Shown piece after piece: positions 53,746 to 60,448 of a stretch of 64,000 bases of DNA (positions within the stretch are counted from its first letter, which is position 1; each line of letters opens with the position of its first letter). The notes under the pieces were generated by a model. It saw only the letters and a list, made by a program, of their open reading frames with translations, ran no database searches and was not told where the DNA came from. Both the position numbers and the translations under genes were made by a program. This DNA is from Candidatus Bathyarchaeota archaeon (GTDB taxonomy: Archaea > Thermoproteota > Bathyarchaeia > TCS64), in assembly GCA_963771885.1 (NCBI GenBank), contig CAVYVF010000023.1, forward strand, positions 640,001-704,000, written 5' to 3'.

Positions 53746-56661
53746 TTAGGCGACGTAGATCGCTGGGCGGTAGGGCTTGGCGCGGCTCGCCCTCTTCGCG
53801 GGGTCATCGATCCAGGGGTCGCTCTCGCCAGAGACTGTGACGTCGCAGCCGAACTCGGCGCGCAGGAACCTCTCGGCGTCCTGTAATAGGGTGGTCTCAT
53901 TTACATGTCCCATTCCACGGCGGATATTCAAGGTCTCCTCCGGGAGCTTCTTGACCTCGTCGAGGAGCGTCCTAGCGTAGGTGGGGACCTCCTTCTGTTT
54001 GGTCTTCATCTCCTCGTCCTTGAAGGCCTCGCGGATCATGGTGCCTATGTCTACGGCGCCCTTCGTCTGCGCCTCCATCGCTTTCTCGAGCATCTTCCAC
54101 TTCCAGTTGTCCGCGGTGTAGAAGTGGATTATCGTGGGCTTGATACCGGTGACTTTGGTGATGTTGGCGACGTCCTCGGCGCAGGTCTTAATGATGGTCT
54201 CTAGCTGCTCGGCGTCCTCCCTAATGAGTGCGCTGTCGACCTCGGGCCAGGGGGCGAAGGCGACGAAACCCTCGTTGCCCATCTGCTCCCATAACTCCTC
54301 GCAGAGGTGGGGCGTGAATGGTGCCAGCATCCTGACCTGGGCGTCCAGCACCGTCCACTCGACGTGGCTTATCGCCCTGCGCCGCTCCTCGTGGTCCCTG
54401 TCGAAGGCGACGCGTTTGAGGTACCAGTTCATGTCACCCTCTATGTCATATGTGGCGGCATGGATGGTCTTCCTGACCTTCAGCTCGGTCATCGCCTCGT
54501 TCGCGTCCGCGATGTGGCTCTGCAGCCTGCTCAGCATCCAGAGGTCTATCTCATGCAGCTCGTATGCGCCTTCCTGCTTCTCGCCTATTATCCTCTGGGC
54601 GCGGGAGTTGAGCCCCTCCAGTAGCCCGCTCATGCTCTTTGCTAAGTCAGGGCTGAAGTCGGCGTCCTTCAGCGGCTCGGCGGTGATCATTAGGCTGAGT
54701 CTCAATGGGTCGGCGCCGAAGCGGTCGATGGCGTTTACGAGGGGGATGATGTTGTTCATGCTCTTACTCATTTTCGCCCCCTCCATGAGTACGGAGCCGT
54801 TGACGAAGATGCCCTGTGGCCAGTTCTCCCTCCCCCAGATGGCGTCGTGGATGAAGATCATGAAGGTGAGGTGGTTGGGGATCAGGTCCCTGCCGCTGTG
54901 ACGGGCGTCTAGTGGGTAGAAGTAGCTGAACTCGTTGTGCAGTTCCTCTATCTTCTCCATTGGGATGCCTGTGGATGCCTCGACCTTGACTGGGGTGCCG
55001 ATTCCCAGGAAGACGTAGTCCCAGAAGGCTTCGCTCAGCTGCTCGGGCTTTGGCTTGATCTGATTTAGTCCCTTGATGATCGTGTAGTATGCCATGTAGA
55101 TGGTGGAGTCGCTCAGGGATTCGATGATCCAGTCAGGTGCCCATGGTAGGCGGGTTCCCATTCCGGCCTTGCGTGCGCATGCCTTCGCCTTGAGCCAGTC
55201 GACGACGTTGATGAACTCCTGCTTGAGCTCGCGGGGAACTATCTCCGCTTCATCGATGTTCTCCTTGGCGAGCTTCTTCCAGGCCTCGTCTCCGTAGTTG
55301 ATGAACCACTGGTTTTCGAATATCTTGACGACGACCTCGGTTCCGCATCTGCACTTGACTGGCTCGATCATCTCGTACATGGTGGCAGCGTTGTTGTTAG
55401 CGACCAGATCGTTCTTGACTGCCTCCTTCGCCGCCTGCACCGACAATCCGACGTATTGTTTTCCCATGCCTCTCATTTTGCCGGCGTGGAACTCGGCGCT
55501 GTAGATTTCCTTGGTGGCTTTTTCGAGGTCGGGGCTGTTCTGGTCGGTGATGTGCATCTTCTTTGCGATGTCGACGGCTGGTGACTCGCCGTAGCCGGGG
55601 AGCTCGATGACGCTGATGGGCTCGAGGCCGGCGACGTCGCCGTGCTTGATTGTGTAGGCGTCTGGGTTTGCCTTTACTTCGCGTTTTAGCTGTTCTAGTG
55701 CTACGTAGTCGAATGGGGCGTGTGCGGGGACGCTCATGACGACGCCTGTGGCGTTCTTCGGGTCGACGAAGGGGGCGGGGAGGATCATGATCTCCTTGCC
55801 AGTTCCGGGGTTGGTGAGTGTTTGCCCTATTAGCCGGGCACCCTGAAACTCGGTGACGACTTGTACCTTGTGCCCCAGCATCTCAAGCTTCTTCGCTGCC
55901 TCGGCGCTGACGATCCACGTCTCACCGTCGACGTCGGCCTCGACGTATAGGGCGTCGGGGTTTAGCCACATATTGGTGACGCCGTAGACGGTCTCGGGGC
56001 GGAGGGTGGCGGCTGGGAAGACGGTGTCGCCATTCCTGAACTTGATGAGTGTAAACTCCTCTATCTCGGGCTCCTTGTCACCGATGGTGTCGTGTTGGCC
56101 GACGGGGTTGCCGCAGTGTGGGCACCAGCCGACTGGGTGGCTTCCCTGTGTGATGTAGCCCTTCTGGCGGAGCTTGGCGAACTGCCACTCGATGAACTTG
56201 CTATAGTATGGGTCGACTGTGGTGAATGTTCTGCGCCAGTCGATGCTGTAGCCGATCTTCTTCATGCCTGTCTGGATCTCGTTTGCGAAGTAGTCGGCCA
56301 TGGCGGTGGGGGTTTCGAGCTGCTTGAGTTTGCGCTTGGGGATATTGTATAGCTTGGTGAATGTCTCGATTAGGGCTGGGTCCTGCTCTTTGAGGCGCTC
56401 GACCATGGCGAATAGGGGTGTGCCTGTGTAGTGCCAGGCCATTGGGTATAGGACATTGTATCCCCTCATGCGCATGTGGCGGGCGTGTACGTCAGTTAGG
56501 GTGTAGGTGCGTCCGTGCCCTATGTGTTGAGGGCTGTTGGGGTATGGGTAGGCGACGGTGAGGTAGTACTTTGGCTTGTCTGGGTCTGGGTCCGTCTCGA
56601 ATGCTGAGGCTTCCGCCCAGCGTGTCTGCCACTTGTTCTCGATTTGTTTCCAGTCGACCAT
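53746..56661 (-). CDS. leuS: leucyl-tRNA synthetase (archaeal type)
   Basis: AYPYPN..HIGH, CP1 TLRPET and GVVMSVPAHAPFDY, KMSKS, C-terminal PYRPAIY. Confidence 0.97.
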   Translation of the reverse strand: MVDWKQIENKWQTRWAEASAFETDPDPDKPKYYLTVAYPYPNSPQHIGHGRTYTLTDVHARHMRMRGYNVLYPMAWHYTGTPLFAMVERLKEQDPALIETFTKLYNIPKRKLKQLETPTAMADYFANEIQTGMKKIGYSIDWRRTFTTVDPYYSKFIEWQFAKLRQKGYITQGSHPVGWCPHCGNPVGQHDTIGDKEPEIEEFTLIKFRNGDTVFPAATLRPETVYGVTNMWLNPDALYVEADVDGETWIVSAEAAKKLEMLGHKVQVVTEFQGARLIGQTLTNPGTGKEIMILPAPFVDPKNATGVVMSVPAHAPFDYVALEQLKREVKANPDAYTIKHGDVAGLEPISVIELPGYGESPAVDIAKKMHITDQNSPDLEKATKEIYSAEFHAGKMRGMGKQYVGLSVQAAKEAVKNDLVANNNAATMYEMIEPVKCRCGTEVVVKIFENQWFINYGDEAWKKLAKENIDEAEIVPRELKQEFINVVDWLKAKACARKAGMGTRLPWAPDWIIESLSDSTIYMAYYTIIKGLNQIKPKPEQLSEAFWDYVFLGIGTPVKVEASTGIPMEKIEELHNEFSYFYPLDARHSGRDLIPNHLTFMIFIHDAIWGRENWPQGIFVNGSVLMEGAKMSKSMNNIIPLVNAIDRFGADPLRLSLMITAEPLKDADFSPDLAKSMSGLLEGLNSRAQRIIGEKQEGAYELHEIDLWMLSRLQSHIADANEAMTELKVRKTIHAATYDIEGDMNWYLKRVAFDRDHEERRRAISHVEWTVLDAQVRMLAPFTPHLCEELWEQMGNEGFVAFAPWPEVDSALIREDAEQLETIIKTCAEDVANITKVTGIKPTIIHFYTADNWKWKMLEKAMEAQTKGAVDIGTMIREAFKDEEMKTKQKEVPTYARTLLDEVKKLPEETLNIRRGMGHVNETTLLQDAERFLRAEFGCDVTVSGESDPWIDDPAKRASRAKPYRPAIYVA

Positions 56662-56740
56662 TCGGTGTAGCCTCTGTCCTTATGTTCTCCTTGGCGGCTT
56701 TGTGGTTAAAGGTTATGAGCAAAAAAACTTGCGGAAAGTG

Positions 56741-57008
56741 TTAAACTATTTTTCTCCGTTGATCGCCAACGTCCTCATCATCTACTTCGGGCATCCTGTT
56801 CACGAATATCGCGTCGCGGTCGCCGAGACCACGTTTAAGTTCGTGGCCAGAACTTGCACGAGGCGAAGGAGATCCCGGAGAAGTCGATCACTATCCTTTC
56901 ACTGCACTTTTTGGGCACTTTTTCCAGTGTTGTCCTCGCTGTACTTCTATGACGGAGGGTATACGTTTGGAAAACCTCGTACAGCTTGATCTCTATAACC
57001 CTCGCTAT
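56741..57008 (-). pseudogene. STAS-like (DUF4325-like) small protein, frame-broken, no ATG/GTG/TTG start
   Basis: IARVIEIKLYEVF..TLRHRSTAR...IVIDFSGISFAS..F, then HELKRGL...IFVNRMPEV in the next frame. Confidence 0.6.
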
Positions 57009-57066
57009 ACTATCCCCGTGTTTCGTATTTTAGAACGCTTCAAGATGAAGCATTAAAACGATTCTG

Positions 57067-58962
57067 TTACTCGACAACGGCTCTAATCCTTCGGATTCCG
57101 GCGGCGACCGCCTCTTCCTTTGTTATCTCAATCCTGCCGATCTTGCCTGTGCGGTCGATGTGTGGGCCTCCGCAGAACTCCTTGCTAATAGCTTCCTTGA
57201 TGTTTAAGCCCACATAGTAAACCTTGACGACGTCACCATACTTAGCCTTGAAGAAGGATAAGGCGCCGCTCTTCTCCGCCTCAATCCGAGGCATCTCCTC
57301 GCACTCCACTTTTAGGTCCTGCCTAACGATGTCATTGGCGATCTCTTCGACCCTCCTGATCTCCTCGTCGGTGAGCTTGCGGGGATAGGAGAAGTCGAAG
57401 CGGAGCCTCTCGGTGGTTATATCCGAGCCGGACTGCTTGACCTCGTCTCCGAGGACCTGGCGCAGAGCCGCGTGAAGGATATGAGTCGCTGTGTGCAGGC
57501 GTATCACCCTGTCCATCTCGGCCTGATCCTTTGCTTTCAGCTCCCCCGTGTCGAGAATGAGCCCGTGACCCCCGAACTTCTTCTCAGCTCCGGCGCGACT
57601 CGCTTGCCTGTGAGCCTCCAGCTTCTGCTCGAATGCCTCCCGTGTGAGGGACGCTGTCTTGGCGCCACCGAACTCCTTTATCACCTCGTAGGGAAGCCCG
57701 AAGCTCTCGTAGAGGGTGAAGGCGGTGTCCGTGTCGATGGCCTCGAGGCGCTCGAGGCGGCGCATGCCGTTCACGAAGGTCTTGTTGAACTTGTCTGACT
57801 CAGCGCGGAAGACCGTCAGTATACGTTCCCTGTTCAGTACGTAGGTACCGTCGTACTCGTCGCAGACGACGCCGAAGAGCTTCTCGAGCGTGTCACAGTA
57901 CACGGTGCCGAGGTCGCATGTCGGGTCGACACCCCTCGCCAGCATCCCGGCGTGGACGATGGACCTTCTCAGAACTTTTCGGAGCATGTAGCCCCTGTCT
58001 TTGTTCGAGGGCTCGACGCCGTCGGTGATGAGGAACGCCGCGGCGCGGAGATGATCTGCAATTATCCTCTTCGAGCGCATATCTGAGCCGGGTAGCCCGT
58101 CGATGAGCGCCTTCAGTGTATCGATCTGGAACATATCAGCGTTCCCCGTGACCGCCGCGCTTATCCTCTCAAGCCCACCGCCGAAGTCGACGTTCCTCTG
58201 AGGTAGCTTCTCGAAGCGCCCATCCTCAGTCTTTGTGTACTCCATGAAGACGGAGTTGCCTATCTCCATGAAGCGCCCGCAATCGCAGTTCGGGTGGCAG
58301 TGTGGCCCATACTTGGGGTCGTGGGGGGTACCGAAGTCGTAGAATATCTCCGAGTCGGGGCCACCCGGCTCCCTCGCCGGCATCTTCTCCGGGGGACCCG
58401 CCCTGCTCCACCAGTTCTTCTTCGAGCTGTAGGCGAATATCCTGCCGCCCTGCATACCGACCTCGTTTCCCCTATTCGGGTCGCCGATGAGGACCGCCTT
58501 CGAGTCGACGCCAGCCTTCGAAAAGATGGATTTCCATATTTGGACGGACTCTTCGTCCTTCGGAATGCCGTACTTCTCCTCCCCCGCGAAGACCGAGACG
58601 TAGAGCCGTGACGGGTTAACCCCCAGCTCCTTCACGAGGAACTCGAAGACCCAGGGCAGCTGCTCCGCCTTGAAGTAGTCGCCCAGCGACCAGTTCCCCA
58701 GCATCTCGAAGAAGGTCGTATGTCTGTTGTCCCCCACCTCGTCGATATCCTCCGACCTGAAGCACTTCTGCGAGTCCACGATACGCGTCCCACTTGGATG
58801 TGGCTCCCCGAGCAGGTACTTGATGAGAGGCTGCATACCAGAGCCGGTGAAGAGTGTCGTTACATCCCCCTCGGGCAGGAGGGAGGCTGACGGGACCACC
58901 GCGTGCCCTCGCTGTCTGTAGTATTCGAGGAACTTGCTGCGAATCTCGTCGGAGGTGAGCAT
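57067..58962 (-). CDS. alaS: alanyl-tRNA synthetase, short bacterial-type (631 aa, no C-Ala domain)
   Basis: TSDEIRSKFL..Y...GH, LFTGSGMQP, QKCFR, HTTFFEMLGNWS, DFGGGLER, IADH; editing motifs HTATH and CGGPH; ends GIRRIRAV. Confidence 0.95.
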   Translation of the reverse strand: MLTSDEIRSKFLEYYRQRGHAVVPSASLLPEGDVTTLFTGSGMQPLIKYLLGEPHPSGTRIVDSQKCFRSEDIDEVGDNRHTTFFEMLGNWSLGDYFKAEQLPWVFEFLVKELGVNPSRLYVSVFAGEEKYGIPKDEESVQIWKSIFSKAGVDSKAVLIGDPNRGNEVGMQGGRIFAYSSKKNWWSRAGPPEKMPAREPGGPDSEIFYDFGTPHDPKYGPHCHPNCDCGRFMEIGNSVFMEYTKTEDGRFEKLPQRNVDFGGGLERISAAVTGNADMFQIDTLKALIDGLPGSDMRSKRIIADHLRAAAFLITDGVEPSNKDRGYMLRKVLRRSIVHAGMLARGVDPTCDLGTVYCDTLEKLFGVVCDEYDGTYVLNRERILTVFRAESDKFNKTFVNGMRRLERLEAIDTDTAFTLYESFGLPYEVIKEFGGAKTASLTREAFEQKLEAHRQASRAGAEKKFGGHGLILDTGELKAKDQAEMDRVIRLHTATHILHAALRQVLGDEVKQSGSDITTERLRFDFSYPRKLTDEEIRRVEEIANDIVRQDLKVECEEMPRIEAEKSGALSFFKAKYGDVVKVYYVGLNIKEAISKEFCGGPHIDRTGKIGRIEITKEEAVAAGIRRIRAVVE

Positions 58963-59097
58963 TACATGTGAATGGACTGGGCTCACCTCAAAAACCTTTT
59001 TTGAAATTAACAACGGTCACCGCCAGATGCGGCTAGGCTGGCTGCGCGTAGAATAACGAAACTAGAAACTGAATATGGAATGAATAAGGTTGTGAGG

Positions 59098-59400
59098 TTA
59101 ACCGAAGAGGGCGCCCAGACCTTGGAGGTCCTCTTCCTTCTTTTCCTCAACCTTCGGCTTAGCGGCTGCCTTCTTCTCTTCCTTCGCTTCAGCTGGCGCG
59201 GCGGCTGGGGCTGCGGCGGCGGCGAAGACCGGCGCCTTCAACGCCTCGTCGATGTTGACCTCCGCGAGGGCTGCGACGAGTGCCTTGACGCGTACACCGT
59301 CGGCGGCTACACCGGCGGCTGCGAGTATGGCGGTGACCGCCTCCTCTGTGATGGGCTTCTTAGCGCTGTGGAGAAGCATAGCGGCGTACATGTACTCCAT
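59098..59400 (-). CDS. rpl12: 50S ribosomal stalk protein P1 (L12p)
   Basis: [11 protein letters not shown], Ala-rich hinge, acidic tail ending GLGALFG. Confidence 0.97.
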
Positions 59401-59518
59401 TTTAATACACCTATTCCTTGAACTGCTATGAAAGGAACAATATATCCTGCATTTAATCTTTCCTATCTCCGCTGTGGCAACCGTTAAAGCGGGACAGGTG
59501 CCAGTAGAACCGATTGTA

Positions 59519-60448
59519 ATGGTCACTAGGATACCAAAGGTGCCCTTCGATAGGCTTACCCCCTCGGGCACGTCGACCCTCAGCCCCTTCAACAAGTCCA
59601 TCGCAAGGGTCAAGCCCGGCGACGAGGTCGAGATAGAGACCTGGGACGCCTTTGGCGGCTGCATAACCGAGACGCAAACCCGCCAGCAGGCGTTGGAGAA
59701 GGGCGTCAAGGTCCCCGTCAACCCCATAACCGGCCCTGTCTACGTCGAGGGCGCCGAGCCCGGCGACACACTCACAGTCGAGATACTAGGCATAGAGCTC
59801 CCCGACAGCGGCACCACAACAATCAGCCCCGGCTTCGGCAGCCTCGAGGGCTGGCTAAACCTAATGGCGCCACGTACCAAGATCAGCAAGATCAAAGCCG
59901 GTAAGGTCCTCTACAAGACCGACTCGGGAAAGGTCGTCGAGGTGCCCGCCGACCCGTTCATCGGCACCATCGGCAACTCACCCGTTTACGAGGCGATAAA
60001 CACACTCACTCCTGGCCCCCACGGCGGCAACATGGACTGCCCAGACATACGCCCCGGCAACACACTCCACCTCCCAGTCAACCAGCCCGGAGCCCTCTTC
60101 GGCCTCGGAGACGTCCACGCAGTACAAGGAGACGGCGAGGTCGGAGGCTCAGCAATAGAGGTCCCTGCCGTCGTAAAGCTCCGCTTCGGCATCAAGAAAG
60201 GTTACGCCATCGCTTGGCCCCGCGTAGAGTCAAGCGATGAGATAATGACCGTCTGCAGCGCCAAGCCCCTTGAGGACGCCGCCCGCCTCGCCTACCGCGA
60301 ACTCGTAAACTGGATGGTTAGAGACTACGGCTGGAACCGCGACGACGCCTACATGTTCCTCAGCATCGCCGCCAAGTCGAGGATAGCACAAATAGTCGAC
60401 CCACTATACACAGTCGTAGCGAAGCTACCGAAGAAGTACCTCAGGTGA
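59519..60448 (+). CDS. acetamidase/formamidase family protein
   Basis: [44 protein letters not shown]. Confidence 0.93.

Follow-up and report, generated by a model that had tools for sequence, protein, structure and literature searches.

The window, a 64,000-nucleotide stretch of DNA from a Candidatus Bathyarchaeota archaeon, carries at 57067–58962 on the minus strand an alaS gene for a small alanyl-tRNA synthetase (small-AlaRS), located between the archaeal genes rpl12 and leuS. Comparison with related genomes indicates that a small-AlaRS from Parcubacteria, Paceibacterota-like and predicted to be a working enzyme, has probably replaced the archaeal alaS in place, as one homeoallele of a series. 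At least three foreign alleles, here called A (that of the window), B and C, have likewise probably entered this slot independently, B also in the same slot of another family. The initial annotation had read the locus as a single replacement event; the replacement is retained, but it appears to be one of several. G000 denotes the genome holding the window, other G-numbers related genomes, and L-numbers loci.

The window encodes a small-AlaRS

The alaS open reading frame (ORF) encodes 631 residues, from MLTSDEIRS to GIRRIRAVVE, without an internal stop. The frame stays open for 17 further codons upstream, to a TTG at 59013; because this extension is missing from G009, G011 and G012, and M1 is invariant throughout the sister group described below, we place the start at the ATG at 58962. 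The Pfam domains found are tRNA-synt_2c (PF01411, residues 6–463) and tRNA_SAD (PF07973, residues 579–626), with no other domain. The product scores 570.9 bits against the NCBIfam small-AlaRS model NF002436 (PRK01584; cut-off 529) and 205.5 bits against the archaeal AlaRS model TIGR03683 (cut-off 744.7). In alignment with the archaeal AlaRS of G002, residue 3 corresponds to archaeal residue 60, the Cys/Zn extension being missing; residues 435 and 486 align with archaeal residues 454 and 589, with loss of a barrel region of about 130 residues; and residue 630 corresponds to residue 730 of about 905, leaving no C-Ala domain (C-terminal 175 residues missing). An AlphaFold2 model has a mean predicted local distance difference test score (pLDDT) of 92.4. 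Its sole low-confidence segment, residues 460–475 (57538–57585, minus strand; pLDDT < 50), is a flexible linker joining the aminoacylation part to the editing core, at the site of the canonical barrel domain and of the gap against archaeal AlaRS. Foldseek matches the model to AlaRS catalytic fragments and to AlaX editing-protein structures. The protein thus has the small-AlaRS domain set, with catalytic, tRNA-recognition and editing parts present and cradle-loop barrel and C-Ala absent. Domains, alignment and linker agree with the initial description of a short enzyme without Zn extension and C-Ala whose parts are joined almost directly.

The editing motifs HxxxH (H490, H494; 57481–57495, minus strand) and CxxxH (C597, H601; 57160–57174, minus strand) are invariant in 129 of 129 aligned sequences; the catalytic residues are invariant too. 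The motifs quoted in the initial annotation are present and equal the consensus of these 129 relatives, a similarity-gathered and hence partly circular set. A DHHA1 search of G000 found none in alaS and three matches elsewhere, which read as DHH-family proteins; on inspection none was a free-standing C-Ala. A DHH-family phosphoesterase-like gene at G000:C2:76354-77332 is split over two frames.

Codon usage is host-like, as had been claimed: GC content at synonymous third positions (GC3s) is 0.79 against 0.71 ± 0.10 in 506 long host ORFs, and the codon fit lies at the 58th percentile. One sister-group alaS gene has a GC3s of 0.44. Among carriers, alaS differs by up to 0.62 at 4-fold sites versus 0.12 at codon position 2. 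In G000, G003, G005, G006 and G017, a mini-frame running from start to stop overlaps the ATG of alaS (58959–58968 of the window, minus strand).

Allele A nests within Parcubacteria

Trees were built from 234 rows (FastTree) and from 80 rows (IQ-TREE, LG+G4). In both, allele A nests within Parcubacteria rows (Paceibacterota, Sungbacteria, Liptonbacteria), far from archaeal AlaRS; in the 80-row tree the SH-aLRT (Shimodaira–Hasegawa-like approximate likelihood ratio test) support is 99 for the clades enclosing allele A and 100 for allele A itself. The candidate phyla radiation (CPR, or Patescibacteria) origin that had been suggested from motifs is therefore upheld by phylogeny. Of the best 80 loci from named genomes, most bear a Patescibacteria title (42–66% in the best segment), and some titled Gammaproteobacteria or Actinobacteria fall among these. 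Among the best 120 proteins, the named non-Bathyarchaeia are Parcubacteria, Paceibacterota, Sungbacteria, Liptonbacteria and Colwellbacteria at 56–60% identity, and a closer sister group stands at 65–69%. One sister-group member, L228 (the same sequence as P0048 in the tree), has dnaG and a sigma-70 gene in front of it and is on that ground taken as bacterial. In a narrow search of G000 for other CPR genes, with 918 ORFs from CPR loci, the best match outside alaS was 48% over 176 residues.

Two side observations concern the bacterial rows. AlaRS-like genes of Actinobacteria (Humibacillus, Rhodococcus, Brachybacterium, Subtercola; L087, L091, L094, L107, L116) match query residues 1–466 only and nest among Saccharibacteria sequences, possibly reflecting transfer of an editing-less AlaRS from Saccharibacteria to their hosts. 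Ten records titled Gammaproteobacteria or Pseudomonadales (L053, L058, L060, L061, L071, L074, L090, L103, L114, L119) hold small AlaRS branching among Patescibacteria; these titles may be wrong.

The resident gene was replaced, not supplemented

No canonical alaS was found in G000, which is 92% complete; the small-AlaRS is the only AlaRS found, accompanied by genes for AlaX-S (C2:73608) and an AlaX-M-like protein (C23:224516). Combined with the archaeal slot and the Patescibacteria branching, this bears out the proposal of an in situ cross-domain xenologous replacement.

An assembly chimera, or contamination of the bin with a CPR contig, would make the locus an artefact, and the estimated contamination of G000 (6.66%) speaks for it. 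Against it, alaS sits within a 1.0-Mb contig among archaeal neighbours, and contigs of two other runs cross the junctions: one 3,280-nt contig of run X1 covers leuS, spacer and alaS with 46 differences, and run X2 supplies a 622-nt contig over alaS, spacer and rpl12 with 2 differences, each junction being supported separately and no single piece covering the whole stretch. Nine congeners carry allele A next to rpl12 and/or leuS, with copies diverged to 79–98% identity in the same context and with host-like codon use. We regard the artefact as already refuted, its residual probability being negligible. A raw-read run, X23, returned only short conserved pieces.

At least three foreign alleles share one slot

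Among relatives, the slot between rpl12 and leuS holds the archaeal gene, allele A (Parcubacteria-type), allele C (Microgenomates-type, inverted) or allele B, a third small form. Within the genus (18 genomes including G000) there are ten A, three B (590 residues), one C (621 residues, inverted) and three archaeal alleles, with no match in one genome. Allele C, from G007, is nested in Microgenomates and has a 90% identical counterpart in a Bathyarchaeota-named protein. Allele B forms a separate clade, among labelled rows confined to this archaeal phylum; Atlas clusters point loosely to Spirochaetota or Bacillota, as a lead only. Allele A shares 25–35% identity with archaeal forms (local blocks) and 39–45% with B or C. 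Approximately unbiased (AU) tests, run on 43 rows of the 80 (37 dropped), rejected a shared origin for every pair: p = 1e-31 for A+C, 3.5e-6 for A+B and 3.9e-5 for B+C.

In the family (f1), the small form occurs in 40 of 71 genomes, the archaeal form in 20 and neither in 11; none of the 60 typed genomes has both. A class sample of 401 genomes holds 54 small and 310 archaeal forms, again without overlap, the 330 genomes outside the family contributing 14 small forms; in a phylum sample the small form occurs in 6 of 301. At 39 small-form family loci (G064 left out), rpl12 and/or leuS adjoin the gene in 38 and both do so in 31. In another family, allele B occupies the slot of G245 and its congener G350 has the archaeal gene in the same slot.

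Losses can be invoked for any patchy distribution; here they would follow a single ancient acquisition, or a coexistence of the forms, and differ between lineages. The AU tests reject the shared origin that this supposes, no genome has both forms, all forms sit in one slot, and the remnants described below are too well preserved for an ancient event (the 5' piece of G061 is 89% identical to G075). Unless A, B and C prove monophyletic, this account is already refuted and has hardly any probability left.

Most allele-B loci (L013, L124, L127, L130-L135, L138 and L162) carry an upstream leader ORF of about 25–60 codons, often opening with codons like those of the archaeal alaS start; four loci were not parsed in this survey, and some B loci have no leader. 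The leader's stop overlaps the TTG start of B, which suggests translational coupling via the old alaS start site. G077 (genus g8) has the 3' tip of a small alaS at the edge of a contig, some 2 kb ahead of leuS (L328, 2873–2953); it is 63% identical to the query over 27 residues, too short to type.

Pieces of the displaced archaeal alaS persist in relatives

In several relatives, broken archaeal pieces flank the new gene, from which we infer that the newcomer landed inside or over the resident gene. G009 and G011 keep 183 nt, from the rpl12 end through the first 10 archaeal codons, at 96% identity to G002, with the new ATG one base after those codons. Behind its allele A, G005 keeps archaeal codons 457–544 and 780–907, 75% and 72% identical to G002; the intact archaeal allele of G016, as a control, is 74% identical to G002. 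Archaeal 3' pieces are also kept in G009, G011, G012, G046 and G066. G061 retains 36 archaeal 5' codons, 89% identical to G075 of its own genus and at most 72% to others, along with a 3' piece, and G041 retains 59 archaeal 5' codons.

An archaeal alaS remnant in the spacers of G000 was considered and rejected. Their scores lie within those of shuffled sequences, and the 3' spacer is a broken STAS-like gene instead. The rpl12-alaS spacer of G000 has no trace of the archaeal alaS start (score 27 against archaeal coding sequence; shuffled maximum 38.5).

Alleles move between Bathyarchaeia lineages

Host markers conflict with the allele distribution. On the RpoB tree, archaeal-type G002 groups with the A carriers G008, G012 and G013 (100/99), G016 falls among A carriers, and archaeal-type and B carriers pair as sisters in three genera. 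The LeuS tree pairs G004 (archaeal) with G015 (B) at 100/100 and G069 (archaeal) with G084 (B) at 100/99; on 28 rows, and with some nodes open, it calls for at least 11 changes of allele state. On the alaS tree G005 joins G000 and G003, and AU tests reject both RpoB-like constraints (p 1e-4); G005 and G000 are 86% identical in alaS, 74% in leuS and 81% in rpoB. G061 and G041, which belong to different genera, are 87% identical in alaS, 64% in fmdA and 70% in rpl12; GC3s is 0.39–0.40 in their alaS and 0.63–0.76 in the neighbouring genes. The claim that the transfer is old thus stands for the first entry of allele A, and fails in so far as the allele has since moved between lineages. Judged from sequence, the forms correspond to homeoalleles: so divergent that they would not recombine with one another, one per genome, several per taxon, and in conflict with the host phylogeny (RpoB, LeuS).

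Archaeal-type carriers among A or B carriers could instead have regained the archaeal allele from relatives, as the nesting of G002 among A carriers on the RpoB and fmdA trees would allow. Archaeal alleles, however, group by genus, as vertical descent predicts, and at 72–79% identity to G002 the remnants in A carriers match the closeness of the intact G016 allele (74%), in keeping with a recent break-up of the gene that each host had itself. We consider reversion improbable, and it would still imply swapping.

Just beyond the window, a frameshift or stop interrupts the rpoB of G000 (C23:637801-639592; L218, L221), probably through an assembly error; one stop is also present in the rpoB of G002.

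Host tRNA-Ala would probably suit any AlaRS

AlaRS reads tRNA-Ala by the G3:U70 pair and not by the anticodon, the residue reading G3 in E. coli being D400 (PMC10036535, available text). The equivalent of E. coli N303 is N320, kept in 127 of 129 aligned sequences. All tRNA-Ala genes found keep G3:U70, and tRNA-Ala(UGC) is identical in the archaeal-type G002 and G016 and the A-type G012. No tRNA co-adaptation was seen in five genomes; the tRNA-Ala(UGC) of G000 differs by one T-loop base. With this pair read and kept and the tRNA barely differing between carriers, any AlaRS would be a drop-in part. Allele A is predicted to charge tRNA-Ala, considering its invariant residues, purifying selection and its being the only AlaRS found. 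Charging would proceed via the acceptor-stem G3:U70 without C-Ala, and Ser and Gly would be cleared by the editing core of the enzyme, with host AlaX proteins as backup.

A probable history of joining, spread and retention

Homology-facilitated illegitimate recombination combines an anchor of homology on one side with an illegitimate junction on the other. The history we favour has two steps. Foreign DNA would first have joined inside or over the resident alaS, leaving the remnants seen in relatives. The newcomer, then behind rpl12, would be essential at once, and an insertion elsewhere would in most cases be superfluous and disappear; this would explain why survivors cluster in the slot. The allele would then spread between Bathyarchaeia lineages by recombination, as the tree conflicts suggest, anchored in the rpl12 end, the element before leuS or remnants, with one illegitimate junction often leaving pieces of the recipient's archaeal alaS. 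G005 fits this second step: its upstream spacer resembles that of G000, and the archaeal 3' remains are its own. No homology was found that explains the first cross-domain junctions.

Several points weigh against this history. The donor of allele B was not traced to a named group (representatives 49–56%), in a comparison in which DPANN were not represented by name. The trees are single-gene LG+G4 trees without a mixture model, and the groups used in the AU tests on the reduced rows were named after the first tree. Host relationships come from single markers, and the inner g1 node stays open in the LeuS protein tree. All genomes are metagenome-assembled, with rpoB and alaS of G002 and G016 on different contigs; G015 has two rpoB copies (C201, C155), one of which groups with genus g8 and is likely bin contamination. 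Archaeal remnants were not found in G000, G007 (allele C) or G245, so landing inside the old gene is seen in relatives only, and the remnant of G041 is not clearly from its own genus (78% to g4, 76% to g5). Nor is the slot the only route, since B-type genes also lie outside it in G152, G172 and G531, where archaeal alaS was not found. In RNA run X15, alaS received no coverage except on a short conserved piece from other organisms. Lastly, the E. coli D400 position is E419 in allele A (Asp in 10 of 129 aligned sequences), and recognition would therefore differ in detail from that of E. coli.

As to cause, the small form may have been favoured as an escape, if an inhibitor, toxin or virus factor attacks the archaeal AlaRS or if that enzyme costs more. 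This is compatible with the history above. At least three apparently independent captures and cross-genus spread at one gene argue for it, as does the excess in the family (40/71 against 14/330 other class genomes). Bacterial AspRS, LysRS, ProRS and TyrRS models score below cut-off in G000 and LeuRS is archaeal, so AlaRS looks singled out among the five synthetases tested. Cost could enter through length (907 residues in the archaeal form versus 590–630 in the small forms), and differential antibiotic sensitivity has been proposed for homeoalleles (PMC3191353, available text). Yet no inhibitor or selective agent was identified, and the archaeal allele persists in the close relatives G002, G004, G016 and G069; we find escape rather doubtful. 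Zinc economy was rejected as a driver: alleles A and B carry Cys-rich motifs of their own, which makes zinc saving unlikely.

A neutral ratchet would do without any advantage: the alaS-leuS junction would be an insertion hotspot, and pieces carrying alaS would be kept since they destroy the resident gene. Unrelated cargo behind alaS in G000 and G003 (a STAS-like relic), G017 and G013 (3.4 kb, with a permease) is consistent with this, and tRNA-Ala needs no change. The ratchet does not readily explain why alaS came from three donors rather than random cargo, or the cross-genus spread; we hold it tenable, at a little less than an even chance. More speculative, and in our view unlikely, is a joint scenario of recurrent selection against the archaeal AlaRS by an inhibitor, toxin or viral factor with donors that were Patescibacteria attached to these archaea. 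If true, the slot would record an anti-archaeal agent and a host-parasite pairing, both undescribed, and would do so twice (Parcubacteria and Microgenomates donors).

Relation to known systems

The small-AlaRS class and its transfer to some archaea have been reported before. Small-AlaRS has been described in CPR, Thermoplasmatota, DPANN and Asgard, with bacteria-to-archaea transfer inferred, and comprises the same catalytic, tRNA-recognition and editing parts, without cradle-loop barrel or C-Ala (bioRxiv 10.1101/2023.05.29.542759, available text). Its main text has no occurrence of 'Bathy', figures S1-S3 possibly including Bathyarchaeia rows, and as far as that text extends it is silent on gene position, remnants and repeated independent donors. 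New are the host group, the arrival of no fewer than three independent foreign alleles in a single slot and the survival of intermediates; no Bathyarchaeia case of repeated cross-domain AlaRS swaps was found in the literature searched, a search with most subscription papers outside its coverage, and PMC8204110 and PMC9437257 held nothing that bears on one.

Aminoacyl-tRNA synthetase homeoalleles are described for TyrRS, ThrRS and SerRS (PMC3191353) and for LeuRS in Halobacteriales (PMC3436685). In the available text of these papers they are divergent isofunctional synthetases, usually one per genome and patchy within a taxon, as here, where isofunction is predicted. TyrRS forms are swapped in the same syntenic context via flanking-gene recombination, with antibiotic selection proposed (PMC3191353). 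The described homeoalleles differ in being two ancient forms exchanged within a domain, haloarchaeal LeuRS-B also being non-syntenic (PMC3436685). The Bathyarchaeia slot has probably taken in three or more foreign alleles, of which two can be traced to different Patescibacteria groups; remains of the displaced gene lie to one side of the newcomer or to both, and recombination from flank to flank would not by itself leave them. Xenologous gene displacement in situ, in which a foreign orthologue takes the position of the lost resident gene, was reportedly described by Omelchenko et al. in 2003; the present case differs in being recurrent and still polymorphic among congeners. The Tupanvirus mini-AlaRS charges tRNA-Ala via the acceptor stem without C-Ala and replaces yeast AlaRS, but it also lacks an editing domain and is eukaryote-derived, whereas allele A keeps an intact editing core (PMC10036535, available text).

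Core translation genes rarely cross the divide between bacteria and archaea, and the route into the exact place of the displaced gene is usually unobservable. Here events recur, intermediates survive and close relatives differ in allele, so that two questions become directly testable: whether flank recombination or one-sided illegitimate joining was the mechanism, and whether selection or a ratchet was the cause. The alleles also point to DNA movement from two Patescibacteria groups into Bathyarchaeia, for which physical contact is a reasonable lead, since a cultured Patescibacterium parasitises a methanogen (PMC12281837, available text). In this family alaS is unsafe as a phylogenetic or binning marker, and allele A offers a natural test of an AlaRS working without C-Ala and without the G3-reading Asp.

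Locus layout and cargo

The rpl12-alaS-leuS position given in the initial annotation was confirmed, both flanks being archaeal. Upstream, rpl12 (archaeal P1/L12; 59098–59400, minus strand) scores 107.9 bits against TIGR03685 (cut-off 100). Downstream, the archaeal-type leuS (53746–56661, minus strand) scores 1023.6 bits against TIGR00395 and 180.6 bits, below cut-off, against the bacterial model TIGR00396. An acetamidase/formamidase-family gene (PF03069; 59474–60448, plus strand) lies divergent from rpl12, a context conserved in family f1. The first part of the rpl12-alaS spacer (58963–59097, minus strand) resembles host spacers, and its ATG-proximal part is common to the allele-A carriers G003, G005, G006 and G017. 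A mobile carrier was looked for and rejected: no tRNA genes were found in seven loci examined, no sigma-70 promoter matched in the window at 56500–59600, plasmid matches reached at most 41% identity (121 records) and, among nine viral loci, the best match was 48%.

Behind alaS lies decayed cargo, a broken small STAS-like (DUF4325) gene at 56761–57066 (minus strand), with 221 of 305 nt identical to G017, where it is intact behind alaS (PF14213, E 4e-4 for the G017 protein, below the gathering cut-off). Between it and leuS, a conserved non-coding element at 56674–56733 (minus strand) recurs in most family loci as blastn matches of 30–60 nt at about 79–97%; it is probably a promoter, by inference, and possibly a recombination anchor.

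Larger inserts occur at the same junction. In G013, alaS and leuS are separated by 3.4 kb of cargo with an amino-acid permease in it (L159, 4807–8313), and several further family genomes have inserts of 0.8–1.7 kb. In G017, a second copy of the last 123 nt of alaS, 76% identical, lies 1.4 kb downstream (L222, 1617–1772; G017:C73); the repeat brackets the STAS-like gene and a convergent gene of 282 residues, and resembles an integration scar at the alaS 3' end.

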